Part shown: in pieces, positions 1 to 15,153 of the stretch | Position numbering within the stretch: position 1 is the first letter of the stretch | Layout of the letters: every line of letters begins with the position of its first letter | UHGV virus genome: UHGV-0197611 | Origin: a virus | DNA: 15,153 bases | Direction: 5' to 3' (one strand) | Program-made: the position numbers and the translations under genes | Notes under the pieces: generated by a model | Told to the model about the DNA's origin: nothing | Databases searched by the model: none | The model's input: the letters and a program-made list of their open reading frames with translations, nothing else

Positions 1-110
1 ATAATATTTCGTCCACCGATACCCTTTATTTGGGTATCGCGAGTAAGCCCCAGAATCTGGGTGTTACTCTTACTACCCAAACTACGGGTAGTTTCCGTAG
101 TTTCATGGTC

Positions 111-179
111 GAGTTGCAGATCTGCAACTCACCCACCAGCCAACCCATTTTGGGGCTGTCGGGAATATCAACCAGTTAC
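111..179. repeat. Left-end repeated module, copy A: perfect 20-bp palindrome GAGTTGCAGATCTGCAACTC (111-130) followed by CCAGCCAAC (136-144), ATTTTG (147-152), TCGGGAATATCA (159-170), AGTTAC (174-179)
   Basis: Read directly. The same ordered set of motifs recurs at 422-482 with near-identical spacing. Confidence 0.7.
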
Positions 180-421
180 TGACAATGCTCTGGGCGTTCT
201 GTCTAGCTGGTGGCTGTGGCTGGACGCTAATTTTTGCGTACCACTTTTGCGCACTTTTTCAGGGTCGGATTTCAGATCCCCACCATTCTGGGAGCAGTTG
301 CAGGGGCCGAATAAATCAATAGCCGTGCTGGTAACGTTTTGCATGACAAGTTTTGACAGTTTTTTATCTTCCGGCCTCCTCAAAATTGAGGATTGAAGAA
401 AAGTCAATGGGTTAGGTCATC

Positions 422-482
422 GTGCAAATTTGCACTATGCCAGCCAACGCAATTTTGCGTTATCGGGAATATCAGCAAGTTA
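422..482. repeat. Left-end repeated module, copy B: 14-bp palindrome GTGCAAATTTGCAC (422-435), CCAGCCAAC (440-448), ATTTTG (452-457), TCGGGAATATCA (462-473), AGTTAC (477-482)
   Basis: Read directly. Lies immediately 3' of the 96-aa ORF on the minus strand, whose TAA stop at 480-482 sits inside the AGTTAC motif. Confidence 0.7.
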
Positions 483-770
483 CCGCCGCAGTCGTTCCGG
501 CTTCTTCCACTGGTAAGTATTTTTCGCGCTCTCCCTCCGTTGTTGAGAACGGCGACGGTATGCCAGCAACTCAAGGACTCTGGTTCGTATGTTGCGCATA
601 TCCACGCCGTTAAGCTCAATACCGTCACGGCGCATCACCTCAGCCACCACACGCGCGTAATTTTCGGCTATCACGCTGTCCGGCTGTGTAGCCTGTTCGT
701 CAGGCTGCTGACTGATTCCGGTAATGCGGCGAATTATTTTTAGTAGATCAGTTTCAGTCATTCTCGTCAT
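480..770 (-). CDS. Hypothetical protein (96 aa), translationally coupled to TerL; basic C-terminus
   Basis: ATG at 770-768 overlaps the TerL TGA stop (ATGA, 767-770). No recognisable motif. A plus-strand ORF (393..743) overlaps it and cannot be fully excluded. Confidence 0.5.
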   Translation of the reverse strand: MTRMTETDLLKIIRRITGISQQPDEQATQPDSVIAENYARVVAEVMRRDGIELNGVDMRNIRTRVLELLAYRRRSQQRRESAKNTYQWKKPERLRR

Positions 771-2428
771 ACCCCATCAAACGCCGCAAGTCGCTCTTTG
801 TGGCTGTCGCTCATATCAAATGCAAATTCCTCATGCTCTGCCTGGAATGTGCCAAACGCCATCAGCGCCGCAACGCTCGGGTCTATCTTGTTGGATGATT
901 TTTTCTTGTTCGGCTTGATATTGGCGTTCGCGTCACTCTGCATCACAACATTACTCATTGACCAGGCCAGCACCGGATCACCACGATGCACAATCACCTT
1001 CCGGTTAACAAAAACTTCGAACGATTTCGCCGCCGGACTGAAACGAAGGTATGTTTGCGGGAACGGCTCCACCTCAAATCCTGCCCCCTGTAGCTGCGTC
1101 CTCAGGTGCGTGGCGTTCCATGTATCGAAGCCCACCAGCCTGATATTGAAATTCTCTGCATCCGCCATGATGTCATCACGGATACGGTCATAATCAATGC
1201 AGTCACCCGGTGTTGTGCGTATCCAGCCCGCCTTTACCCACTGGCGATAGATGGCGCGGTTTTTATTGGCGGGGTTCTGTAGCTGAAATTCCGGCAGATA
1301 GTGACGGGAAACCAGCATAATCTTTTTACCGACCGGAAAGGCATAGCACACGCTGGAAATATCGCTGGTTGATGATAAGTCCAGCCCCGCGTAGCACTCC
1401 TGCCCGTATAAATCCGCCTCCGCGAACGTTCCGGCGCACTCCGCCCATGCACCGTTACCCATCCACGGCGTAGCCCCCTGACACCAGATATTGAATCGCT
1501 TGGTGAGCATTTCCACCCACTGCGACGGAATACCCCGCGCTTTCTGGATGGTTGAGGCCAGTTTTTCACGATCGACGGAAACATCGATATTTGGATTCGC
1601 CTTTATCCACATCGCCGGATCGTCAACCTCGCTTTCATCATCCAGCTCGTAAATCAGAACGAACATGGATTCGTTCATCTCTTCACCATCCAGTATCTGA
1701 CAGCAATAGTCATAGTGTTGTTTACAGGCTGAAACAACGTTGCTCCCCGATGTGGTGATGGCAAATAACAGCCCCTCCGGACGCGCCCCCATCCCCAGCT
1801 CAAGTGCGGAATAAACCCCGTTGTCTGGGTGCAGGTGATATTCATCCACAATGGCAAGACTCGGGTTTGTCCCCTCAATGGTTGCCGCTTTTGCTGCCAG
1901 TGGCTTTAACAGGCTGTTGGTTTTCGGGTGTATCACCTTGTGCGCCTGAATATTTACCCGCTTTCGTAACGGTCGGGATAAAAGGCACATCTGACGCGCA
2001 TCATCAAACACGATCCGCGCCTGATCACGACTCACGGCGGCGGTGTAAATATCCTGCTGCCCGTTTTCCATAACCAGAAACCAGTTAGCCAGGATAGCGG
2101 CGACCGTGGATTTGGCATTTTTTCGCGGTACTTCAATGAATGCGCTGGTGTATTTGCGCCGTCCGGTGGCCTTAACCTTAAAGCCCAGGATGCAGGCAAA
2201 GGCGAACTGCTGCCACGGCTCCAGTTCAATGGGACTACCGCGCATTGCGCCTTTTACGTGCGGACACACCCGGGAAAAGGCAATAAACCGCTCCACGACA
2301 TCCGGATCGAACGTGTAAAGGGAGTTTTCAAGGTCAGAAAAATACCGTTTAACGGCCTGTTTCAGTCGTTTACAGGCCGTAATTTTGCCGTTTTTTACGC
2401 CTTCTGCGTACTCATGCCAGGCGGTCAA
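767..2428 (-). CDS. terL: Terminase large subunit (HK97-like Terminase_1 type)
   Basis: 553-aa translation with deviant Walker A-like VPRKNAKST and Walker B-like LAIVDEYH, and overall large-terminase character. The only in-frame start before the conserved N-terminus is TTG at 2428-2426. The TerS stop (2412-2414) overlaps the 5' end. Confidence 0.92.
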   Translation of the reverse strand: MTAWHEYAEGVKNGKITACKRLKQAVKRYFSDLENSLYTFDPDVVERFIAFSRVCPHVKGAMRGSPIELEPWQQFAFACILGFKVKATGRRKYTSAFIEVPRKNAKSTVAAILANWFLVMENGQQDIYTAAVSRDQARIVFDDARQMCLLSRPLRKRVNIQAHKVIHPKTNSLLKPLAAKAATIEGTNPSLAIVDEYHLHPDNGVYSALELGMGARPEGLLFAITTSGSNVVSACKQHYDYCCQILDGEEMNESMFVLIYELDDESEVDDPAMWIKANPNIDVSVDREKLASTIQKARGIPSQWVEMLTKRFNIWCQGATPWMGNGAWAECAGTFAEADLYGQECYAGLDLSSTSDISSVCYAFPVGKKIMLVSRHYLPEFQLQNPANKNRAIYRQWVKAGWIRTTPGDCIDYDRIRDDIMADAENFNIRLVGFDTWNATHLRTQLQGAGFEVEPFPQTYLRFSPAAKSFEVFVNRKVIVHRGDPVLAWSMSNVVMQSDANANIKPNKKKSSNKIDPSVAALMAFGTFQAEHEEFAFDMSDSHKERLAAFDGV

Positions 2429-2768
2429 GTTCGTCCTCTTCCTCTGTTTCCGGTGGATTTCTGCGACGGCTTACCGGGTCAAAACCCAGCAAAGAAGCCA
2501 TTTTGATCATTATTCTTTCTGCGTCAGCCTTTGCGCTCAGTGCGGGGTTTCTGCTCTCGCTGCCCTGACTGTTAACAATGCTGAACCCGCGCGTCGCAAG
2601 GTCTTCGACGGCTTTGCGGTATATGGAGTAGTTAACACAATACAGTTCCAGATTGCTCCAGTCGGCGGGGGTAAGGTCTTCCCGCCCGGAAAGCTGGCGC
2701 GATTTTTCCTTCCACTGCCTGACCGCGATTTCATCCAGGTAAGCGGGGGCTTTTGGTGGTCTTGCCAT
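2412..2768 (-). CDS. terS: Terminase small subunit (P27-family-like)
   Basis: ATG at 2768-2766 gives 118 aa beginning MARPPKAPAYLDEIAVRQW... with the conserved LELYCVNYSIY segment typical of P27-type small terminases. The longer track ORF (to 2909) starts upstream at a non-conserved extension. Confidence 0.82.
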   Translation of the reverse strand: MARPPKAPAYLDEIAVRQWKEKSRQLSGREDLTPADWSNLELYCVNYSIYRKAVEDLATRGFSIVNSQGSESRNPALSAKADAERIMIKMASLLGFDPVSRRRNPPETEEEDELDRLA

Positions 2769-2887
2769 GTTCTTTTTTCGCCCAATTATTTTCAAAAAAA
2801 TTACCGTGCACAAAAATTTGAGGGGGCGGTCGGTGTCCGGCAGGGACGGTTTCGTCCTGAAAACCACCCCCACCCCCTCTGACGGCC
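2769..2887. other. Structured intergenic region between HNH gene cluster and terS; candidate cos/packaging-initiation region or attenuator
   Basis: G/C-run inverted repeat GAGGGGG (2820-2826) / CCCCCTC (2873-2879) enclosing an imperfect hairpin CAGGGACGGTTTCGTCCTG, flanked on the terS side by A/T runs. Its position between HNH and terS is where HK97-type cos sites are expected. Confidence 0.3.
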
Positions 2888-3073
2888 TCACCAGCGATTG
2901 CGAAAACATTCCATGACCTCGCGGTCACGGTCGGTTAATCGCTTCGCTGTGGTGCGTTTTGTGCGCCCTGTCCTGTTGGCTTTGTGCTCTGTCTCCTGTG
3001 TCTTCCATGTGTCACGCTGCCTTATCAGTCCACGTATCAGCCTGGTTTGCTCCTGTTCAGTCATCATCGCCAT
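2888..3073 (-). CDS. Small basic hypothetical protein (about 61 aa), start overlapping the HNH stop
   Basis: ORF MAMMTEQEQTRLIRGLIRQRDTWKTQ... fills part of the 288-bp gap between HNH and terS. No clear RBS. The track's 126-aa version overlaps HNH in another frame and is unlikely. Confidence 0.3.
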   Translation of the reverse strand: MAMMTEQEQTRLIRGLIRQRDTWKTQETEHKANRTGRTKRTTAKRLTDRDREVMECFRNRW

Positions 3074-3497
3074 ACATCCAGTCGTTACGGTGTGCCGCCC
3101 GTTCTTCCTGCTCGCGATACATGCCCGCTTTACGGTTTGCTTTCGTGGCTGGATCTTCCCGTGTCGTCTTACGGTTGTGGCACGTCTGGCACAATGCCTG
3201 GTGATTCCACTCAGGCCAGAAGAGAACATCACCGCCGCCATTGATGGGAATGATGTGATCCACCACAAGAGCTGGCGTATAAATCCCCTTAGCCAGACAA
3301 CGCACGCATAACGGGTTTTTGCTCAGGTACAGGGCGCGGTATTTGTCCCACTGTCGGGAATACCCGCGCGCGCGGCGGTGTCCCCGTCTGGCATCCTCTG
3401 CACGCCATGCAGCCCGCCTGTGCTCTTCACACTTGCCGGACTTCACGCGCTTATTACAGCCAGGCTCAGTGCATCGCCTTAATGGTTGCCACGGCAT
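3057..3497 (-). CDS. HNH endonuclease (terminase-associated type)
   Basis: 146 aa with Cys pairs (CTEPGC, CVRC, CQTC) and the HNH core DHIIPINGGGD...NHQALCQTCHNRK. ATG at 3497-3495 overlaps the upstream gene's TGA stop (TGATG). Confidence 0.88.
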   Translation of the reverse strand: MPWQPLRRCTEPGCNKRVKSGKCEEHRRAAWRAEDARRGHRRARGYSRQWDKYRALYLSKNPLCVRCLAKGIYTPALVVDHIIPINGGGDVLFWPEWNHQALCQTCHNRKTTREDPATKANRKAGMYREQEERAAHRNDWMYGDDD

Positions 3498-3799
3498 CAG
3501 TACACCCCTACGTCACGATAAACTGACCAGAGCGCAGAAATAGCCATAGGCAGTTCCGAGTGCTCCACTGGTGAAACCGCTTCCCGGTTCTCGTACAGGA
3601 AAGCGATGTACATCAGGCAACCAACACGCATTGCCGGGGTAAATTCCAGCCCGTCTTCAAAACGTTTCCCGATATGCTTCTGGCAGGCTTCCAGCGCCGC
3701 ATCGGTATACATTTTCAGAAGTTCGCCTTCACCGGATAAATCATCATCAAGTCGAAGATGTGCCCTGACTTCATCAGGTGTAATTCTGGCTTCACTCAT
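3497..3799 (-). CDS. Head-tail connector protein (gp6-like, Phage_connect_1 type)
   Basis: ATG at 3799-3797 preceded by GGGAGA RBS. The 100-aa product MSEARITPDEVRAHLRLDDD... matches the characteristic N-terminus of gp6-like connectors. The track ORF begins at an upstream GTG. Confidence 0.75.
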   Translation of the reverse strand: MSEARITPDEVRAHLRLDDDLSGEGELLKMYTDAALEACQKHIGKRFEDGLEFTPAMRVGCLMYIAFLYENREAVSPVEHSELPMAISALWSVYRDVGVY

Positions 3800-5006
3800 C
3801 TTTTCTCCCTTTAATTTCCACAGTCTGTTTCCATGCCTGGCTGAACTCATCACCACCTTCACGCGGCGGCATACCCTCACGCTCACGGGCTTCGTTCGGA
3901 TTCATGATCCCGTTCTTAATCCCTTTCTCATACGTGGCATAACGTTCGGTGGGTGTGGCGCGTAATAAATCGGCTGAATCAAACTCAACCAGATAACGGG
4001 TACCAGGTACGGGAGAAGCCACCAGCAAAGCGGCCTTGATTTGCTGTTCGAAGTTCGCCAGCCACGGGCGCATTGTCATGGTCAGAAACGCGCGGCTTGC
4101 CTCGCTGAAATTGCTGTAGGTGCTGTTGCTGTATTCCTGCAGAAAAATAGGCGATACGTTGAACATGCGGGCGATGTCTTCAATGGAGAAGCGACGGGAG
4201 GCCAGCCATTCCGCATCCTGGTTACTCATTCCCAGTTGCCTGTAATCCATGCCCCCTTCAAGGATTGGCGTTTTTCCGGCATTTTTCGCCCCCTTGTAGC
4301 GTTCCAGAGCATCCAATGCCTGTTTACCTTTCACGCCGTCCAGCCATTCGCCTGACGTGATAATCCCTGCCGCCATCATGCCATCTTTCATAATGCTGGC
4401 TCCGTGGCGCTGTTGAGCAAGGCCAAGCCCAAGTGCCTCACGGCAAATCGTGACGGGGGAGCGCCCCAGAAAGCCATCATCCGAGGCATAGCGGAGATGC
4501 AGAACTTCTTCCTGTAAATACGTGCGCACCGTTCCTGTATAGGGTTCGGTGATGGTATAGCGGTATTTGTGTGCGCCTGTGCGTTCCGGTACAACACACC
4601 CCGGCGCATAAGGATGAAGTGATTTTGGCTGCCCGTCCTGCCCCCACTCAATAACCGCATAGGCGTTACCGTTCAGCAGGCAGTGACGCATCATTGTGCG
4701 TTTAAACTGGTAAGGTGTCTGGCACGAATTAGGCTGCTCATTCAGCAGAATATCTACCGGGTGACTGTCCAGCCATTCCCGCGCCTCCCTGCCCTTGTCA
4801 TTACGTACCAGATACAGATAACACGGCATCGTGGCCACCGCCTCAGCGATGACAGAAACCGCATTCATCACTGCAGGCAATGATTCAGCCGTCCCGGCAG
4901 AAACATATTCTCCGGATCCGGTATTCGGTACGCCGGACAGCGCCAGAAAATCATCAATGGACAGGTTACGCTGCTCGCTTTTTTTACGACTAAAAGGCCA
5001 CCACAT
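3792..5006 (-). CDS. Portal protein (HK97 family-like)
   Basis: About 400-aa product downstream of the prohead protease and upstream of the connector. Start chosen at ATG 5006-5004 (MWWPF...), 1 nt after the protease TGA stop. The track's TTG start at 5096 would overlap the protease gene by 90 nt. Confidence 0.85.
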   Translation of the reverse strand: MWWPFSRKKSEQRNLSIDDFLALSGVPNTGSGEYVSAGTAESLPAVMNAVSVIAEAVATMPCYLYLVRNDKGREAREWLDSHPVDILLNEQPNSCQTPYQFKRTMMRHCLLNGNAYAVIEWGQDGQPKSLHPYAPGCVVPERTGAHKYRYTITEPYTGTVRTYLQEEVLHLRYASDDGFLGRSPVTICREALGLGLAQQRHGASIMKDGMMAAGIITSGEWLDGVKGKQALDALERYKGAKNAGKTPILEGGMDYRQLGMSNQDAEWLASRRFSIEDIARMFNVSPIFLQEYSNSTYSNFSEASRAFLTMTMRPWLANFEQQIKAALLVASPVPGTRYLVEFDSADLLRATPTERYATYEKGIKNGIMNPNEAREREGMPPREGGDEFSQAWKQTVEIKGRKDE

Positions 5007-5007
5007 A

Positions 5008-5568
5008 TCACAACCCCGCCAGCTCAGACCAGCGATGACGATTATTTCCTGTCGGGCATAATTCAGGGTGCTGTGCAAACAACGAACGGTGGGCAATCTC
5101 CACGCCAGATTCTGGATAAGCAGGCATCGACGTTATTGTGATTTCACGGAGTTCAGCGGCGGTTACGGTACGCAAATACGGTTTTTGCGCGATACTCCAC
5201 TCCTCGCATAATGCGCGAAAACCAAAGCTCATTCCTGTAATGTCGCCACGCTCCACCAGCGTAAGCACATCTTTTCCAAGCTGGGTATCCGGCGGTGTCA
5301 GTTCAAAACGTAACCCGGTGTTATCCTCAGTCAGTACCAGAGTGCCGGATTTGGTGCGCCCCAGCAGTTGGGTATAGTCATGCTCATACAGGCAGCGCAC
5401 ATCATTACCCGCCGCCAGATAGTCAGCAAAAGCCCCCGGCGTGAACTGTTCGCGGAATTCGTCCCAGATAATTTCTGAAAGGCTGTTCCAGCGAACGGCA
5501 TACCCCACCAGCTTTTTATTGCTGGCGGTCAGTTCAGATGTGCGGATTTCAAAATCGGTGTTTTTCAT
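5008..5568 (-). CDS. Prohead maturation protease (HK97 family, S78-like)
   Basis: 186-aa product with the typical N-terminus (..LVGYAVRWN..) and size. ATG at 5568-5566 with GGAG upstream. Sits between capsid and portal. Confidence 0.88.
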   Translation of the reverse strand: MKNTDFEIRTSELTASNKKLVGYAVRWNSLSEIIWDEFREQFTPGAFADYLAAGNDVRCLYEHDYTQLLGRTKSGTLVLTEDNTGLRFELTPPDTQLGKDVLTLVERGDITGMSFGFRALCEEWSIAQKPYLRTVTAAELREITITSMPAYPESGVEIAHRSLFAQHPELCPTGNNRHRWSELAGL

Positions 5569-5587
5569 CGGTGTACTCCATAAAGCT

Positions 5588-5609
5588 GAAAAAGGAGGCC
5601 GCAGCCTCC
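5588..5609 (-). terminator. Intrinsic terminator/attenuator immediately downstream of the major capsid gene
   Basis: Minus-strand stem GGAGGC-(TGCG)-GCCTCC (plus 5594-5609) followed by TTTTTC (plus 5588-5593), 14 nt after the capsid TAG stop. Confidence 0.6.
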
Positions 5610-5622
5610 TCCTTACTCATGA

Positions 5623-6792
5623 CTAGCCAGCTTTCATTTCCAGAATTTTGATGGCGTTTGAATCCACCACACCACCGCCCAGATATTTATCCGTGTGGAC
5701 CTTGTAGAATCCGGGTTCAGTAATGTTGTCCGGTCGGGTGCGAATCCCTGTTACATGATCAACGATGAAATAACCACGACTGAAATCGCCAACCGCTAGC
5801 GGTGCTTTTCCTGCGCCGATGTCCGGCATGGACTCCAGGCAGTAAACAGGACGACCAAGCAACATATCCGGCGCACCTTCTTTAAGGCTGTCGCGCCAGA
5901 TATAATCGCCGTTCTCATTTTTCAGCTTCTGTAGTGTCCCTGCCGTGCCCGAGTTCATCACCCAGACGGCATTTTTGCGGTATTTCGCTTTCAGCTTGTA
6001 GAGAATGTCGATCAGTTCGTCCGCTGTAATGGCGGTTCCACTTGCCGCTACCATTTTTTCAATGGTGCCAAAAGCGCGGGTTTTGTCACTGGTCGCCGCA
6101 CGGGTGTAAGCCATGAAGCCTTTCGGCTTGCCGTTACCGTTGCCATTAACAAAATCATCCTCTTCGGTGCTGGCGAACGTGTCGGCAATTTCGGAGGATA
6201 ACCAGCCCAGAATATCCACCTCTGAAAAATCTAGGATTTCCTGCGTGGTTTTCGGGTAGGCGTAGATCGGGTTCAGCTTGATGGTTACGCGTTCAATTTT
6301 CGGGGTGTTGGTTTCACTGCGTGCGCTGCCTTCTGTGCCTCGTCCTACAGTTGCGCCGCCAGTGGAAACCAGTTTCTGAAACTCATTTGATTTTGCAGTC
6401 TTCACGGTCGCGATCACGCGCATAACACTGTCATCCTGTAGCTGGCGCATGACTTCGCGATCAAGCTCAGGAATTACGGTATATCCGCCATCCCTGCCGC
6501 TGTCAGTGCTGGTGGACAGAGATCGCACATCTCCGGTTACGATGTAGTTACGCAATTCATCAGATGATACTTTCTGGATGCCCGTTCCTGGCTTGCTGCG
6601 TTCTTCATCAGCCACAGACTCGAGGCGGGAAATGTCTGTATCGAGGGAATCAGCTTTTGCACGCAGTTCATCAAACTGTTTGCCCTCGTCATCGTTCAGG
6701 CTGCGGTTTTCACTGTCGGCTTTTTCCAGCAGGGATCGCATCTGGTTTTTCAGGGCGTTTTTTTGCTGGCGGAGCTCGATTAATTTCTTCAT
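5623..6792 (-). CDS. Major capsid protein (HK97 fold) with N-terminal delta/scaffolding-like coiled-coil domain
   Basis: 389 aa. The N-terminal ~100 residues are charged and coiled-coil-like (MKKLIELRQQKNALKNQMRSLLEKAD...) and are followed by a capsid body. ATG at 6792-6790. Gene order capsid-protease-portal. Confidence 0.9.
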   Translation of the reverse strand: MKKLIELRQQKNALKNQMRSLLEKADSENRSLNDDEGKQFDELRAKADSLDTDISRLESVADEERSKPGTGIQKVSSDELRNYIVTGDVRSLSTSTDSGRDGGYTVIPELDREVMRQLQDDSVMRVIATVKTAKSNEFQKLVSTGGATVGRGTEGSARSETNTPKIERVTIKLNPIYAYPKTTQEILDFSEVDILGWLSSEIADTFASTEEDDFVNGNGNGKPKGFMAYTRAATSDKTRAFGTIEKMVAASGTAITADELIDILYKLKAKYRKNAVWVMNSGTAGTLQKLKNENGDYIWRDSLKEGAPDMLLGRPVYCLESMPDIGAGKAPLAVGDFSRGYFIVDHVTGIRTRPDNITEPGFYKVHTDKYLGGGVVDSNAIKILEMKAG

Positions 6793-7039
6793 GAAGGTTT
6801 TCTCGTATTGGTTAAGATTCAGGACGTGAAACCAACACGGAGGGAGCGCCGCCCGACACTCTCGGCATCTCGCAGATCAACCCGGCATCGCGCAGGGGAT
6901 CGGACGGCAACAGTGGCGGCTCACGTCTGAGTGCCACTATTTAAGATATGGATCAAAAAATTGATGTAAATAAGGTATTTTTGTTACGAACAGTCTTGAA
7001 TGTTAACACACAAATAATTTACAAAAATGCTGATAAACT

Positions 7040-7786
7040 ATGGAGATTCAAGTGACAAAAGAAATTCTTGCTGTTCCTGGGATGCGACCATCCCCATTGT
7101 TCAAAAGGACTTATAAATTAGTTCGGGAGATTGACGAAAGATTAACCAAACTGATTCATAGATGGCGATTTTTCAATGCAGGCCCCCCCATGAAAGTTAC
7201 TGCATATGATGGAACAGAAATATGCTATCAAGGTTTGGCATTTAAAGGTACTCCCGTTCAAATTTTTTGGAATGGTTTTATCGATCCTTACATTGAAAAT
7301 AACTCAGAAATTGTTTTAGAGCAGACCTCCGCGTTAGCAATTGAATGTCAATTCTCAATAGAGGAGTCAATCGAGGAGGCTAAATTACTATTACTTGTGA
7401 TGATTCGCAGGCTTTACTATGAAATGGCCGAAACAGATAAAATATTAAGAGGTGATGGGTTTTCCTTCCCAGAAAAAAAAGACGTTAGTGGTTATATTGA
7501 AAGTATCTCTCAAAAAATCATAGAACATGCTGAAATTGAAAAGCTAAAAAAAACGCATCCAAAACAAAACATATTCAACATAGCTACTGTAAATAGCCAA
7601 TACGTACAACTTGGTACAAATAACAATATTAATATACAAGAGCTCTCTGAGTTCTTCTCAAAAATTGCATCAACTGGTGAAAAAGAAATTATTACTCTCT
7701 CAAAAAACCTTCTTAAGAAGGCCTACTCAAAAAACTTACTGAGTAAAGAAAACTATGAAGCTCTAATATCAAACCTTAACACATAG
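7040..7786 (+). CDS. Hypothetical protein (248 aa), first gene of AT-rich plus-strand cassette
   Basis: Long ORF in a markedly AT-rich segment on the opposite strand to all flanking modules. Its C-terminal region (FNIATVNSQYVQLGTNNNINI...KNLLKK) is paralogous to the C-terminus of the next gene. No strong SD upstream. Confidence 0.72.
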   Translation: MEIQVTKEILAVPGMRPSPLFKRTYKLVREIDERLTKLIHRWRFFNAGPPMKVTAYDGTEICYQGLAFKGTPVQIFWNGFIDPYIENNSEIVLEQTSALAIECQFSIEESIEEAKLLLLVMIRRLYYEMAETDKILRGDGFSFPEKKDVSGYIESISQKIIEHAEIEKLKKTHPKQNIFNIATVNSQYVQLGTNNNINIQELSEFFSKIASTGEKEIITLSKNLLKKAYSKNLLSKENYEALISNLNT

Positions 7787-7845
7787 ACAAAATACACTTT
7801 CAAATCTACTAGTTAAACGCAAAAGCGATCACGAGGAGCAACATA

Positions 7846-8355
7846 ATGGATCTTAACGTCATGGCATATCCAGAAAAATTCACAATCGCAGGAGTTGAAT
7901 ACAAGGGGAAAAGAAACTCAGCTGAAAAAAAAGTGCTAATCCCTTATACTGAAGAACCAGATATTAATATTGGAGATGAAATCACTCAAAAACTAGGGAA
8001 GGGGGAAATAATATTAAAAGTAATTGATATGTCATTTTTACCAGGAGGTACACTCAATGTTGGTACTAATCACCCTCACATGCTTACATTAAAAGTCGAG
8101 AATCTGACTGCTAATGAACATAAACCAAAACAATCTAGCCAAAATACATTTAACATTGGTAACATATCCGGTACACAGGTTCAACTCGGTGAGCATAACA
8201 ATCTTATTGTAAATCTCAGCATAACTGAACTTGTTGAAAAAGTTTCTCAATCACAAGATCCTCAGGCAAAAAATTTGCTTAAGGATTTACTAAATAATAG
8301 TACGGTAGCCAGTCTCGTTGGTGCTGGTGCGTCCGCCTTGTTAACAATGCTTTGA
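7846..8355 (+). CDS. Hypothetical protein (169 aa), second cassette gene; short hydrophobic small-residue C-terminal tail
   Basis: ATG at 7846 preceded by GAGGAG (7833-7838). Shares the module FNIGNISGTQVQLGEHNNLIV...KNLLKDLL with the upstream protein. Ends in TVASLVGAGASALLTML. Followed immediately by a strong hairpin. Confidence 0.8.
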   Translation: MDLNVMAYPEKFTIAGVEYKGKRNSAEKKVLIPYTEEPDINIGDEITQKLGKGEIILKVIDMSFLPGGTLNVGTNHPHMLTLKVENLTANEHKPKQSSQNTFNIGNISGTQVQLGEHNNLIVNLSITELVEKVSQSQDPQAKNLLKDLLNNSTVASLVGAGASALLTML

Positions 8356-8356
8356 G

Positions 8357-8388
8357 TATATGGCCTGGCAAAGAGCCAGGCCATATAA
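8357..8388. terminator. Bidirectional hairpin between convergent genes
   Basis: Perfect 13-bp stem TATATGGCCTGGC / GCCAGGCCATATA with 6-nt loop, 2 nt after the plus-strand stop (8353-8355) and 1 nt before the minus-strand stop (8390-8392). No long T-tract on either side. Confidence 0.55.
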
Positions 8389-8389
8389 T

Positions 8390-8650
8390 TCATTTCTCAC
8401 TCATCCAATTAGGAGGTAGTGGCATTTTTTTCCTTAAAACCTGCAAATGCTCAATCAAAACATTAACCTGCTCTTGATTTGTTGCAAGGATTTCATCTGA
8501 TAGCGTGCTACGAATAAAATCATGATGGTCAATCCACAGTAAACCACCATTTGCAAGGGCCTGACGGTACTGAGTGGTAGGCATTGAAGCAATATCATGA
8601 AGTCCGAATTGATCAAAATAATTGTTTATTTCATGCGTCAGAATCGGCAT
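8390..8650 (-). CDS. Hypothetical protein (86 aa)
   Basis: ATG at 8650-8648 with AGGAAG RBS. AT-rich. Located between the iteron origin and the cassette, convergent with the cassette. A tandem TTTATCTAA x2 (8664-8681) lies in its 5' leader. Confidence 0.6.
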   Translation of the reverse strand: MPILTHEINNYFDQFGLHDIASMPTTQYRQALANGGLLWIDHHDFIRSTLSDEILATNQEQVNVLIEHLQVLRKKMPLPPNWMSEK

Positions 8651-8792
8651 TATTTCTTCCTATTTTATCTAATTTATCTAATTTGTAGTCATTTTTAACC
8701 AGTATTCGGTCAAATCAAGCGCGTGTTTTTGTGTGCTTTACTGTCATAGTCTTTATCTCACAGCAGTAAATTAAAATTTTTGCGTTTTAACC

Positions 8793-9020
8793 CTTCACCT
8801 GTTCACCTTTTGATATTTTATCTTTTAATTCATAAGGTTAAGGGGTGAACAGTTTCACAAAAACTATTCACCAACTGTTCACCACTGTTCACCCTTGAAG
8901 CTCAATAAACAATCAAAAAGGTGAACAGTGAATAGTTTGGTGAACAGTTCATAAATAACTGTTCACCCTATAATATACTGATATAAAAGATATTTATGAC
9001 AGGGTGAACAGTGGTGAACA
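8793..9020. repeat. Iteron array / putative origin of replication (P4 type I-like octamer TGTTCACC)
   Basis: Nine perfect copies of TGTTCACC/GGTGAACA in both orientations (plus strand 8800, 8876, 8886, 8960; complement 8844, 8920, 8939, 9003, 9013), plus degenerate copies (8793, 8865, 8928), interspersed with AT-rich spacers and lying immediately 3' of the replication gene. Confidence 0.8.
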
Positions 9021-9034
9021 GTTATTCCATAAGT

Positions 9035-10852
9035 TTAATTTTTGCTATCGTCATTAGTGACCGATACACATGATGGCATCCAGTCTTCTGATTCCTCCGT
9101 CAGTGTCACGTTTGAACGCAAACCGTGCTTCGTTTTCCGTTTCATATACTCCCTGCCATATTCCGCCATTGCCCCCGGCATATCTTTACCGAAGCGCGTC
9201 AGTGTTACAGGTTTACCAAACCCATGTGCCCTCATATAAGCCAGATAGGCATGATAGAGATATCTGCGCGGGCTGAATGGCACAATTTCAGCATTACCCA
9301 CTAACAGGCCATCACACATTACCGACGCCATGAGATAGCCGCAGAAGTCCACCAGCGAATCCCCCTCTCGCTTTATCGCCAGTGCTTCTTCAGATTTCTG
9401 CTGCTCATATAACAGGCGTCTGGCTTCGTCCTGGTTAGCAAACCGTGTAAGCAGATGGCGAATCACTACCGCCAGCTCACCTTCTATTTTTTCCGCCAGC
9501 ATCGGATCACGTTCGTTCTCCGGTACAACTTCCGAAAAATTGAATATCACCCGACGACGTGAGATCCCCCCGCTGCGGTCACTGAATGACATGGCGTTAT
9601 TGTTAACCGCCAGCACTACTGCCGGAATACGCGTTGAGTAGGGAGCTTTGTGTTTCGGGTCAATTGCCACCTTGTCACCGCCTGTAATGGCCTTAATCCC
9701 TGCCCCATCACCAGCGTAGCGGGTCATATCCGGCATGATAATCAGAGAAAAGCCAACCACTAACGCACGTTCCCTTGCATCTTCCAGCGCCTTCATGCTT
9801 GCTGATACTGTATTAGCCTTACCCGCCAGCATGGTGCAAATCTCCGCCATTACGCTTTTACCGCTTCCACCAGGACCAGTTACCTCAATGAATAACTGCC
9901 AGTCATATCTGTTCGCCAGCACCATGAATAATGCCGCCAGTACACGATCCGCTTTGCGATCATTCTCAGCCACCGAACGGTGCAACCACTTCCAGAAATT
10001 CGGCGCATGTGTTGCCAGCGTTTCCCCCTCTGCTGGTGGGCTGAAAGGTAATTCACTGGCAATTAACAACCAGTCGTTTTTGTTATGCTCCCGAAAATTA
10101 CCTGTTCTGGTATCAAATACCCCGTTACTGAATCCAATCAAGTTACGGGCTGTATTCCCCATTACAGGCAAACTTAACTTCATGGTATCGACCGCTGATT
10201 TAATAGCGTTCTGTGAATAGCTGATCTCCGCATCAATGAAAATCTGCGCCATAGCACGCTGTAACTCTTTATCCTGAACCGGCTCCCATACAACGCCGTT
10301 GTAATGGTGAACAGTGTCAGAGTCAGCATGAATCGCCAGTTCACCACCATAATGTGCCAGGAGAACTTCGCCGCGTTGACTTGCTCCCATCTGGTTAAGC
10401 GCCAGTGATGAAGCGTTATCGTCTTTTACCCGCTCTTTTTTCTTTACAGGCAGTTCAACAACCTTTTTCTTTTCCGCCAGCTCTCCCCGCTCACGCTCCA
10501 GATATTCGCGCCAGTTCTCCCGTTTCTGGCTGTGCATTCCTTCAGGGTAATAATCAGCATCCCTGACACCTGCCGCTGCCAGTTTCTGCCCGATGGTATT
10601 AACAAGTCCCGGACGCAATAACCCCGCCTGATAGAGACGCACACGATAGCGTCCGTCTGGTACGATTTGCAGGTTGTCCAGTTCGGCAAGTTGTTGCTCT
10701 CCAAGCCAGACAGGTGGCACGTTATCGCCAGCCAGTCGCCCGTCCTGTTCCTGCCACTGCTTCGCATGTGCCCACGCATCACTACCCGCAAAAATGATGA
10801 CTTCCGTCATTTTGTCACGCGGTTGGTGTTTTAAATTTGGCGCTTTTTTCAT
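9035..10852 (-). CDS. Replication protein, P4-family primase C-terminal (D5_N-like) + SF3 helicase (alpha-like)
   Basis: 605 aa from ATG 10852-10850, which overlaps the upstream gene's stop (ATGA). The track start is an upstream GTG. Walker A GPGGSGKS and Walker B-like SLIIMPD. Iterons lie directly downstream. Confidence 0.88.
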   Translation of the reverse strand: MKKAPNLKHQPRDKMTEVIIFAGSDAWAHAKQWQEQDGRLAGDNVPPVWLGEQQLAELDNLQIVPDGRYRVRLYQAGLLRPGLVNTIGQKLAAAGVRDADYYPEGMHSQKRENWREYLERERGELAEKKKVVELPVKKKERVKDDNASSLALNQMGASQRGEVLLAHYGGELAIHADSDTVHHYNGVVWEPVQDKELQRAMAQIFIDAEISYSQNAIKSAVDTMKLSLPVMGNTARNLIGFSNGVFDTRTGNFREHNKNDWLLIASELPFSPPAEGETLATHAPNFWKWLHRSVAENDRKADRVLAALFMVLANRYDWQLFIEVTGPGGSGKSVMAEICTMLAGKANTVSASMKALEDARERALVVGFSLIIMPDMTRYAGDGAGIKAITGGDKVAIDPKHKAPYSTRIPAVVLAVNNNAMSFSDRSGGISRRRVIFNFSEVVPENERDPMLAEKIEGELAVVIRHLLTRFANQDEARRLLYEQQKSEEALAIKREGDSLVDFCGYLMASVMCDGLLVGNAEIVPFSPRRYLYHAYLAYMRAHGFGKPVTLTRFGKDMPGAMAEYGREYMKRKTKHGLRSNVTLTEESEDWMPSCVSVTNDDSKN

Positions 10853-11148
10853 TTCTGCTCTCTCCACGCGGCAATCATGTTTTTCAGTTCCTGTAGTTTT
10901 TTATCCACATCCACACGTGACACATGGTTATTTCTGGAAGGCGGGATTTCCCGCCCGAATCTGCAAATAAAGATCTCCACGTTCAGCGAGCTATGAAATG
11001 AATAGCCATCACGAATAAAGTACACACGGTCAAACATTATCGATTTTACTGTTACTCTGTTGCCGTTCTTATCCCGATAAATAGCGCCGGGGATAATTTT
11101 GGGATGTGCATAACCGCTGGCAGTCAAGCCAGATAAATACGTTCTCAT
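10849..11148 (-). CDS. Hypothetical protein (99 aa), translationally coupled to the replication gene
   Basis: ATG at 11148-11146. Stop overlaps the primase start. No recognisable motif. Confidence 0.6.
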   Translation of the reverse strand: MRTYLSGLTASGYAHPKIIPGAIYRDKNGNRVTVKSIMFDRVYFIRDGYSFHSSLNVEIFICRFGREIPPSRNNHVSRVDVDKKLQELKNMIAAWREQK

Positions 11149-11154
11149 GATTAT

Positions 11155-11475
11155 TTATCCCCGATTTGAATCAGTATTCGCTTTCTTTATGGCATTTAAT
11201 GCATCTGTGGCATTTTCAATGGTGCACCGTAACGAAATATCAAAATGTCCAAGCATTGCCAGTAACAAACCGATATTACCCATATCAATGCGCATGGCCT
11301 TTGCGTCATATTCCTCATTTTCTGACGCATGCCACATCAGGCTACCAATTGACGCAACAGCCATTGATATATTGTCAGTAGCCCCATCCGCAGCGGAATA
11401 AACCTTTTTAGCAATATCATGCTCACAGTTAAAATGCGGATTAATCAGGTACTGGTAATTTGACATATCAGGCAT
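11155..11475 (-). CDS. Hypothetical protein (106 aa)
   Basis: ATG at 11475-11473 preceded by strong SD AAGGAGGT with 5-nt spacing. Overlaps the stop of the upstream small ORF. Confidence 0.65.
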   Translation of the reverse strand: MPDMSNYQYLINPHFNCEHDIAKKVYSAADGATDNISMAVASIGSLMWHASENEEYDAKAMRIDMGNIGLLLAMLGHFDISLRCTIENATDALNAIKKANTDSNRG

Positions 11476-11671
11476 GGCGCACCTCCTTGCGGATACGGGC
11501 GGTGAACACCATCACGCAGCCAGCTGGGGATTGCTGGCGGGCTTCCTGTTCACTGGTGGCCACGATGGTAATCACACGCGGTTTTGCGGCGCTCAGGGCG
11601 ATAAAACGCCAGGTGAATTTATTCAGGTTGTGCGAATCCCGCCCTCGCGGGTGTGTGGTATGATTTAACAT
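11468..11671 (-). CDS. Small protein (67 aa), possibly Icd-like (host cell-division inhibitor family of P4-like elements)
   Basis: ATG at 11671-11669 with GAGGT RBS. Product MLNHTTHPRGRDSHNLNKFTWRFIALSAAKPRVITIVATSEQEARQQ... resembles my recollection of Icd-like proteins; not verified. It is the C-terminal part of an otherwise implausible 304-aa ORF. Confidence 0.45.
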   Translation of the reverse strand: MLNHTTHPRGRDSHNLNKFTWRFIALSAAKPRVITIVATSEQEARQQSPAGCVMVFTARIRKEVRHA

Positions 11672-11752
11672 AGCTACCTCGATAATCTTGCTATCGTTGG
11701 TGGTTAGACGCCCTACATGTGTTGCGAGCACTGCGGGGCGTTGCTCTTTTAG

Positions 11753-11798
11753 GTGTATTTCACCTTTGCTTTTTAATTTACTCACTGGTGAAATACAC
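11753..11798. promoter_or_regulatory. 12-bp perfect inverted repeat GTGTATTTCACC / GGTGAAATACAC with 22-bp spacer in the divergent regulatory region
   Basis: Read directly. Arms resemble the ori octamer (TTCACC core). Followed on the plus strand by T-runs and a TATACT -10-like hexamer (11829-11834) upstream of the small plus-strand gene. Confidence 0.5.
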
Positions 11799-11864
11799 TT
11801 CAAGCCTTTTTTTATCATTTTTTTTGCGTATACTGACATACACCAATTTTTAGGAGATCCAGAA

Positions 11865-12044
11865 ATGGCAACTGGTGCAAAGAACGCAAAATCACAAATG
11901 ACAACTGTCAGAATCCCACATGAAGTAATGGATGATATTGAGCAACTTAAAGAACCTGGCGAAAGTACCGCTGGTTTTTTAGTTACTGCCGCAAAAGGCG
12001 AGATCAAACGCCGCCAGCGGCGCAAGGCCAAAGAGCAGGAGTAA
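11865..12044 (+). CDS. Small charged protein (59 aa), candidate DNA-binding regulator
   Basis: ATG at 11865 preceded by AGGAG (11853-11857). Product MATGAKNAKSQMTTVRIPHEVMDDIEQLKEPGE...KRRQRRKAKEQE. Transcribed divergently from the replication operon. Confidence 0.5.
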   Translation: MATGAKNAKSQMTTVRIPHEVMDDIEQLKEPGESTAGFLVTAAKGEIKRRQRRKAKEQE

Positions 12045-12101
12045 CCATCACCAGCGCCGTGATGCGGTGAACTGTGGCGCACAGGGTTACAGGTATCTAC
12101 G

Positions 12102-12281
12102 ATGACTGACAAATTATTAAAGAAATTATCCTCATCTAGGAAAAAACAACGCAAAAATGCGGTAAACGAACATGAACCGGAGAGATTCGCACCATGTGCG
12201 TTTGTCCTTGAGAAGTACCTTAAAGAGTATTCCAGGAAAATATGCTCATTGCAGGCATGGCAACAAATCGATCCAGACTGA
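12102..12281 (+). CDS. Small hypothetical protein (59 aa)
   Basis: ORF not in the supplied track (below the size cut-off), found by reading the sequence: MTDKLLKKLSSSRKKQRKNAVNEHEPERF... Weak RBS. Lies between the upstream small gene and a plus-strand terminator. Confidence 0.3.
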   Translation: MTDKLLKKLSSSRKKQRKNAVNEHEPERFAPCAFVLEKYLKEYSRKICSLQAWQQIDPD

Positions 12282-12390: not shown

Positions 12391-12612
12391 TTACGCCGAT
12401 TTCAGTTGTGCTTTGGGTTGACGATCAAGCCAATCATTAACCTCAGACAGCAACCAACCGACAGAACGAGCCCCCAACTGACGACGGGCTGGAAACACCC
12501 CTTTCCTTTCCATCATATAACGCGTCGTTCGGCAAATACCGGTAAGGCGTCGGCATTCCTCCTCACGAATGATGCGATCAAATTGGTCTTGCGATGATTT
12601 AACTTTGCTCAT
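12391..12612 (-). CDS. alpA: AlpA-family transcriptional regulator (phage/prophage regulatory protein)
   Basis: 73 aa from ATG 12612-12610 (GAGGG upstream), containing ...CRRLTGICRTTRYMMERKGVFPARRQLGARSVGWLLSEVNDWL, which matches the AlpA HTH and SVGW signature. The track ORF extends further upstream. Confidence 0.85.
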   Translation of the reverse strand: MSKVKSSQDQFDRIIREEECRRLTGICRTTRYMMERKGVFPARRQLGARSVGWLLSEVNDWLDRQPKAQLKSA

Positions 12613-12705: not shown

Positions 12706-13439
12706 GTTCGCCCTAAGTATTTAGCCCACGTATTCTTATCTGTTGCGGGAAGAAACACCCCTTTCATCGCTGCCGCAGCCTCTAAAACAGCGATCACTTT
12801 AGCAACTGGAGCAGTTCCAATATCTATATCATCCATTTCTGGAATTAGTTTGATTAATGCAGGGATCAACTCAGCTTTCTTCGCAAGAGTTTTTGGCGAT
12901 TCTCCCATTTTTCTTCCAGGCATGGTTCCAACATCTTTGATATGCTCCAAATCCTTAGCCATTACACATAAAAACCTTCTGTCGATCTCAATAGCCCCAT
13001 CACTCATAATTTGACATTCCCAGTTTTCTGATTCAGGACGAGTTGAAAAAAAAGATGATACTATCCTTGCATCATTGCCAATAAATTCAAGTTCAGAAAA
13101 ACTTTCCCGATTTAGATAGAAGAAACCGCAAAAATTCTTTGCAAGATAAGAAGCCACACCAAAATAATTTACCCATTCAAAATCGCTACCAACAGGCTTC
13201 ATCCCTGTAATTACCCAGCGATCCCCTTGCAACATCCCTCCAGAATCAACATCAATATTTTCAACTAATGATTTTGGTATAACTAGCGATTTACATGGAT
13301 GACAGTTTGGAAAATAAACAGAAATATTCAAAGCACCTATAGCAGCAAAATGATATATATCATTAAGCGTACATCCCAGCTTCTTTGCTGCTTCAGGCAA
13401 TGGATAATATATACGCTCAGGGATGCTTATCTTTTTCAT
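12702..13439 (-). CDS. Hypothetical protein (245 aa) with N-terminal HTH-like segment; between integrase and alpA
   Basis: ATG at 13439-13437 overlaps the integrase stop (ATGA). N-terminus PEAAKKLGCTLNDIYHFAAIGAL looks like a helix-turn-helix. More AT-rich than int and alpA by eye. Confidence 0.75.
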   Translation of the reverse strand: MKKISIPERIYYPLPEAAKKLGCTLNDIYHFAAIGALNISVYFPNCHPCKSLVIPKSLVENIDVDSGGMLQGDRWVITGMKPVGSDFEWVNYFGVASYLAKNFCGFFYLNRESFSELEFIGNDARIVSSFFSTRPESENWECQIMSDGAIEIDRRFLCVMAKDLEHIKDVGTMPGRKMGESPKTLAKKAELIPALIKLIPEMDDIDIGTAPVAKVIAVLEAAAAMKGVFLPATDKNTWAKYLGRT

Positions 13440-14659
13440 TTCGCTACCTTCAATATTTTTACATTTGAATACTGACCAGAAATAACCTCAAGCCGTTCCA
13501 TCCATTTATTTAGAGCGTCTAGTTTTTCTGGTAAGTACTGGCTACGATTGTATATGGCCATTACACCACCTAATGTGTGACCGAGAAGCTGTTCAACAAC
13601 ATGTGGTGCAATCCCCATGTTATTTAGTGTGGTAGCAAACGTCCTGCGCAGGTCGTGAAGTGTCCACGATTCAATATGCCCCAGACGCTTATATATCATC
13701 CTCCCCCATTGGCTGACAGCTTCTGGTTTCTTTATTTCACCCAACAAAAGACCTGAGTTTTTGTGTTGCTCTATAAGCTGTTGGATGAATGGGCGTATTA
13801 CCACTGGAATAGGGCGCAATATCTTCTCTCCGCCTTTGCTGTGTTCTTTAGGCACTGTCCAGATCCAATCCTTTAAATCCCACTCTGTAATACGTGACAA
13901 CCGAAGCTCCTGGGTTCGACATCCAAACACCACCAATAGACGCAACAACGATGAATAGTATGGTTTAAATTTCTTACCTGAACATTCCTGCCAAATATCT
14001 GCTAACTCTTGACTGCTGTGTTCCCTATCGCGCTTATTCTGTTTTCTACCAACATCATCGATAGTCAGGTCATCCAGAGCATTGCTAACCGCATAACGAT
14101 GTACGCGGCAAAACTTCAGAGCCTGCTTACACATCTGCAGCAAATAACCAGCTGCCACTGGAGCGTCATTCCTTACTCTAGCGAAACACTCCAGCCAATG
14201 CCGGGTTTCGCACATTGATAACGGATAATCACCTATATAGGGGAAAATATGCTTCCTCAGTTGCTCAATGTGTTTATCAACATTCGTGCGCTTGTAAACG
14301 GCGTATTCTCTGATCCAGTAATCCAGAGCCTCTTTTACCGTCACTGGTTTGAGTGTTTCATGTATTGCCACATTTAACCGATGCTTTGGATTTTTACCTT
14401 CAGCAAGCCATGCTCGACACTGTTCACGTTTCTCGCGCGCAGCTTTCAGAGAAAGATCCGGGTAGTTTCCAAGCTTAACACGCTGTGAATACGATTCACG
14501 CCCACCAATCCGGAAAGAGAAATACCAAGTAAGAACGCCAATTTTTGACACCTTGATACTCAATCCATCACCGTCAGCATAAAATCTATCTCTATCGATT
14601 TCCCTCCCCAGCATCTTACGCAACGATGTATCGCTTAATTTGTTCGTTCCTCCAGCCAT
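13436..14659 (-). CDS. int: Tyrosine site-specific integrase (P4-like)
   Basis: 407 aa from ATG 14659-14657 (AAGG upstream); the track start is an upstream alternative codon. C-terminal catalytic signature HDLRRTFAT...LLGHTLGGVMAIYNRSQY and a typical N-terminal arm-binding-like region. Confidence 0.92.
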   Translation of the reverse strand: MAGGTNKLSDTSLRKMLGREIDRDRFYADGDGLSIKVSKIGVLTWYFSFRIGGRESYSQRVKLGNYPDLSLKAAREKREQCRAWLAEGKNPKHRLNVAIHETLKPVTVKEALDYWIREYAVYKRTNVDKHIEQLRKHIFPYIGDYPLSMCETRHWLECFARVRNDAPVAAGYLLQMCKQALKFCRVHRYAVSNALDDLTIDDVGRKQNKRDREHSSQELADIWQECSGKKFKPYYSSLLRLLVVFGCRTQELRLSRITEWDLKDWIWTVPKEHSKGGEKILRPIPVVIRPFIQQLIEQHKNSGLLLGEIKKPEAVSQWGRMIYKRLGHIESWTLHDLRRTFATTLNNMGIAPHVVEQLLGHTLGGVMAIYNRSQYLPEKLDALNKWMERLEVISGQYSNVKILKVAK

Positions 14660-14685
14660 AGAAAACCTTAATTCATATTGAAAAC

Positions 14686-14707
14686 TGACTGCACCACTGA
14701 CTGCACA
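14686..14707. repeat. Int-proximal direct repeat copy 1: TGACTGCAC-C-ACTGACTGCAC-A (two tandem TGACTGCAC units)
   Basis: Identical 22-mer recurs at 14920-14941. Copy 1 lies 27 bp upstream of the int start codon. Confidence 0.75.
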
Positions 14708-14875
14708 CTTTAATATTACCCTATGAACAGAAATGAACAAAGGTAAACTAAAGAAACAACATTAATCATTTTATTCAATAAGTTATATAAACACTAACGA
14801 ACCATGACAAACTGTAAGAAACATAGGTTTTGATAATACGGCATGAACTAATTCAGGTTAGCTAAATGCTTGATT

Positions 14876-14912
14876 AAAAAGGCGCTACTCGGCATGGGGA
14901 AGCGCCTTTTTT
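14876..14912. terminator. Possible bidirectional intrinsic terminator
   Basis: AAAAA - GGCGCT - 14-nt loop - AGCGCC - TTTTTT. The stem is short and the loop long, so stability is uncertain. Confidence 0.4.
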
Positions 14913-14919
14913 ATTAAAA

Positions 14920-14941
14920 TGACTGCACCACTGACTGCACA
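14920..14941. repeat. Int-proximal direct repeat copy 2 (identical 22-mer)
   Basis: Read directly. 234 bp from copy 1, on the far side of the hairpin. Confidence 0.75.
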
Positions 14942-15153
14942 TAAGCACGAACGAAACCGAACAATAATAAATAGAATAGATACCTGCCAGTGGTTATGTC
15001 TCCGCAGTGATGTGTTTTTTCATTTTTAATGGGGATAAAAACGGTGTGGTGAGCGGTCCGGAAGACGCCATGGCAAGAGTTTTGCCCCGCTTCTCCCTGT
15101 GCATGATAGATAACCGAGGGCGGAATTCCGCCTTCGGTGCTCACATATGAGAA

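Follow-up and report, generated by a model that had tools for sequence, protein, structure and literature searches.

The attP of phage lambda carries five arm-type sites, two on one arm and three on the other, and integration and excision make mixed use of them. In P4 the arm sites overlap the int promoter and bring about negative autoregulation, and P2, on which Yu and Haggard-Ljungquist reportedly published in 1993, is said to have a single direct-repeat pair on each arm. In KplE1, likewise, the arm sites and the int promoter overlap, with negative autoregulation as the result (PMC2951348). What the arm sites of lambda, P2/186, P4 and KplE1 have in common is that they are short direct repeats in the arms of attP, that they lie apart from the core-type sites and are absent from attB, and that they are recognised by a separate N-terminal domain of the integrase.

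A pattern of this kind has also been described in the helper-embedded PICIs (HE-PICIs). There, a "doubled motif" tgTGTATTGCantgTGTATTGCa is present as two co-oriented copies 81 ± 2 and 132 ± 2 bp either side of the attP centre, and it was left open whether its binder is Int, AlpA or some other protein (PMC10111431). The motif was stated to be absent from the attPs of fis PICIs and unique to HE-PICIs (PMC10111431; Williams laboratory, NAR Genom Bioinform 2023), which form a sister clade and whose integrases are described as close relatives.

The DNA analysed here, a viral sequence of 15,153 bp (UHGV virus genome UHGV-0197611) that we refer to as the window, contains two identical copies of the 22-mer TGACTGCACCACTGACTGCACA, each made of two tandem units (TGACTGCAC CAC TGACTGCAC A). 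We consider it likely that these two copies are arm-type sites in the attP of a fis-integrating, capsid-forming PICI. With the HE-PICI doubled motif they share a 12-bp-period tandem, a pair of copies in one orientation whose distances from the crossover are constant but differ between the two sides, and a nearby AlpA gene. The distances are 81/132 bp in HE-PICIs and 80-101/133-154 bp here, with measuring points that are not identical, and the spacing between copies differs (about 213 bp in HE-PICIs and about 234 bp, start to start, here). The sequence differs as well: the HE-PICI core is TGTATTGC, the half-site here is TGACTGCAC, and no fis class equals TGTATTGC. The architecture of the HE-PICI attP is thus common to fis PICIs, with only the half-site sequence differing, and this corrects the published claim that helper-embedded PICIs alone have a doubled motif in attP (PMC10111431). 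Compared with lambda, the arrangement is minimal (2 + 2) and uses an identical sequence on both arms. A full-text literature search returned no other description of a doubled arm motif in fis PICIs; the sites would therefore be textbook in kind but, as the arm sites of fis PICIs, new.

The window is a circularly permuted fis PICI

Megablast against 5426 complete E. coli genomes identified positions 14400-14914 as the int end of an island found in about 20 genomes, and positions 14835-15153 as a segment that comes after fis in other genomes, with 80 bp common to both matches (query positions 436-515). In strain D8 the island sits between fis and yhdJ, according to the RefSeq annotation, and is 99.2% identical to the window. 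Aligned to D8 by blastn, window positions 1-11713 run on directly from positions 14835-15153, with no gap at the passage from 15153 to 1. The integrated island thus joins what the window presents as its two ends, and the window is therefore a permuted whole element that shows attP and has no host junction: it is a circular permutation of an entire capsid-forming PICI of about 15.2 kb, a member of the "fis PICI" group, with a single copy of the core. The initial annotation had placed the element-host junction probably in the repeat region or just beyond it. For this window that was mistaken, as the recombination site lies between the repeats (14835-14849) with element DNA on both sides, and the DNA past the second repeat is not host sequence but belongs to the element too, at its far end on the terminase side. 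The window probably does not derive from a chromosomal segment but from a satellite that had been excised, packaged or assembled as a circle.

The order in D8 runs from fis through the core, about 780 bp of non-coding DNA and a hypothetical gene to TerL, TerS, HNH, connector, portal and protease, and from there through the major capsid, primase, alpA, another hypothetical gene and int to the second core and yhdJ. This is the gene set of the capsid-forming PICIs (10.1101/2022.09.08.507074). The element carries int-alpA, capsid, portal, protease, connector, HNH and terminase genes, has no tail or lysis genes and belongs to the 10-18 kb class, a description of content based on the RefSeq annotation of D8 and, in the window itself, on Pfam matches in Int, AlpA and the primase. 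It also falls among the "fis PICIs" of PMC10111431, being integrated at the 3' end of fis with the identity block TACGGCATGAACTAA. We found no difference between the element itself and the EcCIEDL933 family (fis/capsid-forming PICIs), of which it is a typical member, with the same fis 3' end target, int-alpA, primase, HK97-type capsid, TerS and TerL.

The int gene (minus strand, 13436-14659) encodes a tyrosine integrase of 407 aa with an N-terminal arm-binding domain, and its start codon, an ATG at 14659-14657, is confirmed by a 100%-identical copy annotated in RefSeq. The alpA gene (minus strand, 12391-12612) encodes 73 aa with a Pfam match to Phage_AlpA (3.4e-14), a candidate excisionase or regulator; the 73-aa form agrees with the annotation of D8. 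Between alpA and the Icd-like/YlcI genes lies the sole window segment that does not align to the D8 island (11714-12167), a small mosaic replacement of about 455 bp here as against about 587 bp in D8.

The crossover lies at the 3' end of fis

A four-way alignment of the window, the attL and attR of D8 and the attB of K-12 delimits an 80-bp block of identity among attP, attL, attR and attB (14835-14914, plus strand). The block consists, in order, of AA, the last four fis codons (TAC GGC ATG AAC), the stop codon TAA (14849-14851), the fis 3'UTR and a terminator hairpin ending in TTTTTTAT. Within this block we place the exchange in the segment AATACGGCATGAACT (14835-14849, plus strand), because of the polarity of sequence variants between attL and attR. 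In SCU-125, the stop codon of attL and the sequence to its right show island-type variants (TGA TACTAGTCAG..., followed by a variant terminator) and attR is host-type throughout, and the same polarity is seen in the IMG/VR loci L031 and L028. The placement agrees with the published identity-block consensus of fis PICIs, TACGGCATGAACTAA, and with the excision of Kpn47.16.fis, which was mapped experimentally to within TACGGCATGAACTGATAC (PMC10111431).

The hairpin at the end of the block (14876-14911, plus strand; RNA fold of -24.2 kcal/mol, z = -3.6) is identical to the sequence downstream of fis in K-12. By its sequence it is an element-borne copy of the fis rho-independent terminator, and it takes the place of the host copy at attL after integration; the attL of SCU-125 holds an island-type variant of the fis terminator. 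A tRNA/tmRNA scan and an Rfam search at the gathering threshold gave no match, so the integration target is not an RNA gene. In a relaxed Rfam scan (E <= 1, on positions 14600-15153 and 1-800), positions 14845-14912 gave a sub-threshold match resembling STnc40, a Salmonella sRNA candidate (25.6 bits against a gathering score of 45 bits, E = 0.033), which probably reflects a fis 3'UTR-derived transcript copied by the element. A match to GibS in the relaxed scan was dismissed as meaningless.

Two doubled motifs flank the core

The first 22-mer lies on the P arm (14686-14707) and the second on the P' arm (14920-14941), both on the plus strand and identical in sequence and orientation, and both fall outside the identity block, on either side of the core. 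Their TGACTGCAC units begin at 14686, 14698, 14920 and 14932, which makes two tandem pairs with a period of 12 bp, all co-oriented, and these are the only exact copies of the unit on either strand of the 15,153-bp window. Identity extends somewhat beyond the 22-mer, with 25 of 26 nt shared between 14682-14707 and the second copy ending at 14941. Degenerate copies of the unit, with one or two mismatches, occur elsewhere in the element at chance level only and give no indication of a further regulon. The first unit of the P-arm pair is separated from the int ATG, downstream of it on the minus strand, by 27 bp, and its offset from the G of the fis sequence GGCATGAAC is -154; the P'-arm pair begins 5 bp past the block shared with attB, at +80 from the same G. 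The initial annotation had reported exact copies of the 22-mer at 14686 and 14920, hence four units in two tandem pairs, one of them 27 bp from the start codon of int, with a hairpin between the copies; all of this stands, although the hairpin is nearer the second 22-mer than midway. In integrated copies of the element one doubled motif lies at attL, beside the fis terminator and about 15 kb from int, and the other lies at attR.

Offsets are fixed while the motif sequence varies

A tblastn search of a phage collection with Int yielded only two close relatives, and for this reason we turned to IMG/VR, where a scan with an alignment of Int produced 80 loci. The 3' end of fis is at the core in every locus in which the sequence upstream of int reaches the core. 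An unbiased scan for any 12-bp-offset tandem of at least 8 nt from -260 to +200 of GGCATGAAC, with no sequence specified, found a tandem of 12-bp period starting at -154 to -157 in 37 of 37 distinct P arms. The exception in its start is L042, where there are three units from -168 on and the two core-proximal units are in register. On the other side, a tandem lies at +78 to +80 in all visible P' arms (12 distinct).

The sequences of these tandems fall into at least seven classes, all on the same fis core: TGACTGCAC, TGACTACAC, tTGACTACAC, aTGACTACAC, GTGATACAC, TGTTTATACA and TGTGCCCCAC. Both arms carry the same class in the window, D8, HZ13, SCU-125, L010, L014, L015, L031, L068, L069 and L048. 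An exception is L028 (IMGVR_UViG_3300011481_000018), with two TGACTACAC units on the P arm and two TGACTGCAC units on the P' arm, which differ by A versus G at the sixth base. Because this locus mixes the two, the sixth base of the half-site (G/A) is probably not discriminating, and the TGACTGCAC and TGACTACAC "classes" may represent a single specificity.

The motif is kept where its surroundings are not. The 24-nt sequence ACTGACTGCACCACTGACTGCACA is invariant in islands with about 80% DNA identity in the int-att region and 86-87% identity in Int, and its flanks in those islands diverge, with a 10-bp indel among the differences. SCU-125 has an unrelated P' arm, beside an Abi gene, and yet the identical 22-mer stands 5 bp after the block, at attL. 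The induced Klebsiella element vB_KppS-Ant, available in attP form and with an Int 62% identical to that of the window, has TGTTTATACA-nn-TGTTTATACA at the same two places. When an exact 21-mer was sought in species-representative genomes, four of the six matches were arms of fis PICIs in Buttiauxella, Erwinia and Enterobacter, at the same offsets, and in Enterobacter soli the 22-mer is exact within an otherwise unrelated P' arm. The other two matches, both in MAGs, are unrelated 12-bp coding tandem repeats.

Motif classes follow the arm-binding domain of Int

Pfam recognises Arm-DNA-bind_3 (1.4e-17, residues 8-93), Phage_int_M and Phage_integrase in Int, and the N-domain is homologous to the solved CP4-like integrase N-domains 3JTZ and 3JU0. 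Measured against the Int and AlpA of the window, elements with the same or nearly the same motif (TGACTGCAC, TGACTACAC) are 79-89% identical over Int residues 1-95, 78-89% over the catalytic part and 63-67% in AlpA. The corresponding values are 54-59%, 72-79% and 62-66% for the GTGATACAC class, and 49-59%, 63-79% and 45-66% for all clearly different classes taken together (GTGATACAC, TGTTTATACA, TGTGCCCCAC), a co-variation among related sequences that are not phylogenetically independent in every case. The classes thus track the N-terminal arm-binding domain of Int, and neither AlpA nor the distance to the start of int, which makes arm-type Int sites the best reading of the repeats. The common core, for its part, constrains the catalytic and core-binding regions of Int.

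The initial annotation had suggested arm-type attP sites next to an integrase gene, and here it fares well: such sites beside a P4/CP4-type integrase agree with all of the comparative evidence. The copies lie on both arms of attP outside the shared block, flanking the core at positions fixed to the crossover, and are absent from attB; Int has a separate N-terminal arm domain, and the sequence of the sites co-varies with this Arm-DNA-bind_3 domain while the core stays constant. Location, geometry, absence from attB, conservation and co-variation were each computed directly.

We think it unlikely that the doubled motifs are instead sites for AlpA or for another DNA-binding protein encoded by the element. 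The alpA gene is two genes away from int, direct repeats in the arms of att sites are typical targets of excisionases, and the HE-PICI authors name AlpA as a possible binder of the analogous motif (PMC10111431). But AlpA is 62-67% identical to that of the window whether an element has the motif of the window (L014, L031) or belongs to the GTGATACAC class (L042, L048, L054), and hence its similarity does not follow class, whereas the N-domain of Int separates the same elements at 79% or more versus 59% or less. The neighbouring ORF of 245 aa is more variable than AlpA, and too variable to be the binder. Evidence drawn from sequence comparison thus favours Int over AlpA on a question that was left open in PMC10111431.

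There is, moreover, a second layer of repeats that looks more excisionase-type than the 22-mers. Between the P-arm motif and the core, RAAC repeats on the plus strand form two clusters with 10-bp phasing (14725, 14735, 14745 and 14754; 14789, 14799, 14809 and 14819; overall 14725-14823), eight in all where 2.5 are expected, a count reached in 6 of 5000 shuffles. Three more, at 14949, 14954 and 14959 (14949-14963, plus strand), lie just distal to the doubled motif of the P' arm. Comparable phased RAAC arrays are found, much alike, in all motif classes, and most otherwise unrelated P' arms have GAAC repeats at a spacing of about 10 bp after the doubled motif, sparse in the TGTTTATACA class. These arrays may be sites for an accessory protein (an RDF such as the excisionase AlpA) or may form a bending array. 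An AlpA much more conserved than Int would fit such invariant arrays, and this was not borne out, AlpA being 45-67% identical across elements. Matches to the IHF consensus are at chance level over the window (20 observed, 19 expected); two IHF-like sites positioned in the arms, at 14773-14785 and 14863-14875, are tentative candidates.

The P-arm motif in the int leader

A further alternative, and to our mind a decidedly unlikely one, is that the int-proximal copy is primarily an operator of int, acting in autoregulation as in KplE1 IntS or P4, and that the distal copy is incidental. In most classes the doubled motif does lie 13-36 bp upstream of the int ATG, and overlap of an att arm with the int promoter, with negative autoregulation through arm-type sites, has been described in KplE1, along with the prediction that it is common (PMC2951348). 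However, the distal copy is kept at +78 to +80, yet is 15 kb from int once the element is integrated. In L056 and L062, moreover, the ATG of int is 367 nt from GGCATGAAC, about 190 bp further than here, and the doubled motif is still at -155, which points to a motif position fixed relative to the crossover and not to int. Given this geometry, autoregulation cannot be the primary constraint on the motif. Nor was a sigma-70-like promoter found: promoter and terminator consensus scans of 14500-15153 returned none, and a relaxed -35/-10 scan of the minus strand for the int promoter gave a single 8/12 match and nothing convincing. Control of int fits the arm-type reading as a secondary role. With the P-arm pair inside the leader of int, binding of Int to it may also repress the gene, and negative autoregulation is plausible by analogy with KplE1 IntS.

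L056 and L062 carry another set of repeats, which reaches as far as 270 nt upstream of the ATG of int: three direct copies of TTGTTCCA stand by the start of the gene, and beyond them come four in inverted orientation. This set does not coincide with the TGTGCCCCAC doubled motif at -155, and may be a distinct regulatory element of int.

Iterons, host sequence and island-free sites

It is very improbable that the repeats serve the satellite as iterons in replication or as signals in packaging. Iterons are typically short tandem repeats, and the element is a replicating, self-packaging satellite; but it has a separate dense repeat array elsewhere, and the doubled motifs are tied to the crossover at fixed offsets whatever genes are nearby, such as the Abi gene of SCU-125. 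The separate array occupies non-coding positions 8819-9036, just upstream of the D5-type primase/helicase gene (minus strand, 9035-10867), and is made of direct and inverted GGTGAACAGT-type repeats; it is likely a replication origin with iterons.

The empty attB of K-12 (fis-yhdJ) contains no copy of TGACTGCAC. Among the 5426 complete E. coli genomes the P' arm is present in 30 (5396 are without it) and the P arm in 19. The 22-mer follows fis in the absence of int in E. coli KL53 (2501-5319 of locus L002), yet this is what is left of an island: the P' arm and its 22-mer, a hypothetical gene and a 5'-truncated TerL, followed by an acrF-like fragment and IS3, with the remainder of the island and the yhdJ-acrE region deleted. 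The prediction that island-free genomes would lack the repeats is borne out, exceptions of the KL53 kind being remnants. By chance, 15 kb would be expected to contain about 6e-6 exact 22-mer pairs (1.15e8 position pairs x 4^-22), and the repeat is therefore not a chance one. The repeats also differ from a duplicated att core, as they are absent from attB and are not the sequence common to attL, attR and attB. That they might be host sequence, a target-site duplication produced by integration or a product of chance, as a copy after fis in some int-less genomes could suggest, has next to no probability left and is refuted by the remnant nature of KL53, the K-12 attB, the position of both copies outside the attL/attR identity block and the chance expectation just given.

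In a lineage of E. coli CSF isolates that comprises N24, N64 and also MS20657, a single TGACTGCAC unit is present at P'/attL, and the P arm keeps two. The case of N24 (L098; NZ_CM165898.1, 190-215) is a clean deletion of one 12-bp unit, in effect a natural half-site mutant. Either one half-site is enough, or these islands have been immobilised.

A proposed attP architecture and its implications

Returning to arm-type Int sites as the preferred reading, we posit that two 9-bp half-sites, in tandem with a period of 12 bp, make up each 22-mer. One pair would lie on the P arm, the one next to int, at about 133-154 bp from the crossover, and the other, co-oriented, on the P' arm at about 80-101 bp. 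The four half-sites would be bound by the four Arm-DNA-bind_3 domains of an Int tetramer, which would bridge the arms to the core while its core-binding and catalytic domains act at AATACGGCATGAACT, in the 3' end of fis; binding of Int to the 22-mers, its stoichiometry and any autoregulation are predicted here from sequence. The arms would be folded back with the help of accessory factors, possibly at the phased RAAC arrays and the IHF-like sites, and the RAAC layer may hold a filament of the excisionase AlpA or provide bending. Integration would exchange the 3' end of fis and its terminator for the copies carried by the element and leave one doubled motif each at attL and attR.

Such an architecture would provide a testable attP map for a large group of satellites (several thousand fis PICIs are known, capsid-forming PICIs included), comprising the crossover, 2 + 2 half-sites whose offsets on the arms are constant, the phased accessory repeats and the copy of the fis terminator that the element brings with it. 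For annotation, the motif pair marks both ends of an island precisely.

More tentatively, and with somewhat less than even confidence, we suggest that the integrases acting on this one fis core have diversified into at least five to seven specificities of arm domain and half-site, which could serve as orthogonal identity codes. If so, satellites stacked in tandem at one attB would each excise only as the correct unit, and nature would have supplied in fis PICIs a library of orthogonal pairs of arm domain and DNA site, built on a catalytic and core chassis that stays constant. The doubled motif would then characterise the integrase clade as a whole and not HE-PICIs only. Diverse motif classes on a single core are in any case material for studying how arm-domain specificity evolves and for engineering orthogonal integrases. 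A stacked pair is found in IMG/VR (L030/L091; IMGVR_UViG_2713896732_000002, 27.2 kb), where a TGACTGCAC and a TGTTTATACA fis PICI lie in tandem, with a hybrid junction between them that has the P arm of one class and the P' arm of the other; under the proposed identity codes, this junction would be inert.

Past the P' arm, the element continues with about 720 bp of non-coding DNA before the last gene of the packaging module (14942-15153 plus 1-480). This stretch gave no Rfam match and is a possible packaging or regulatory region. A 26-bp palindrome within it, at 15113-15138, encloses an EcoRI site, and a direct repeat of 44 nt is present at 136-179 and 440-483, its two copies being 82% identical.
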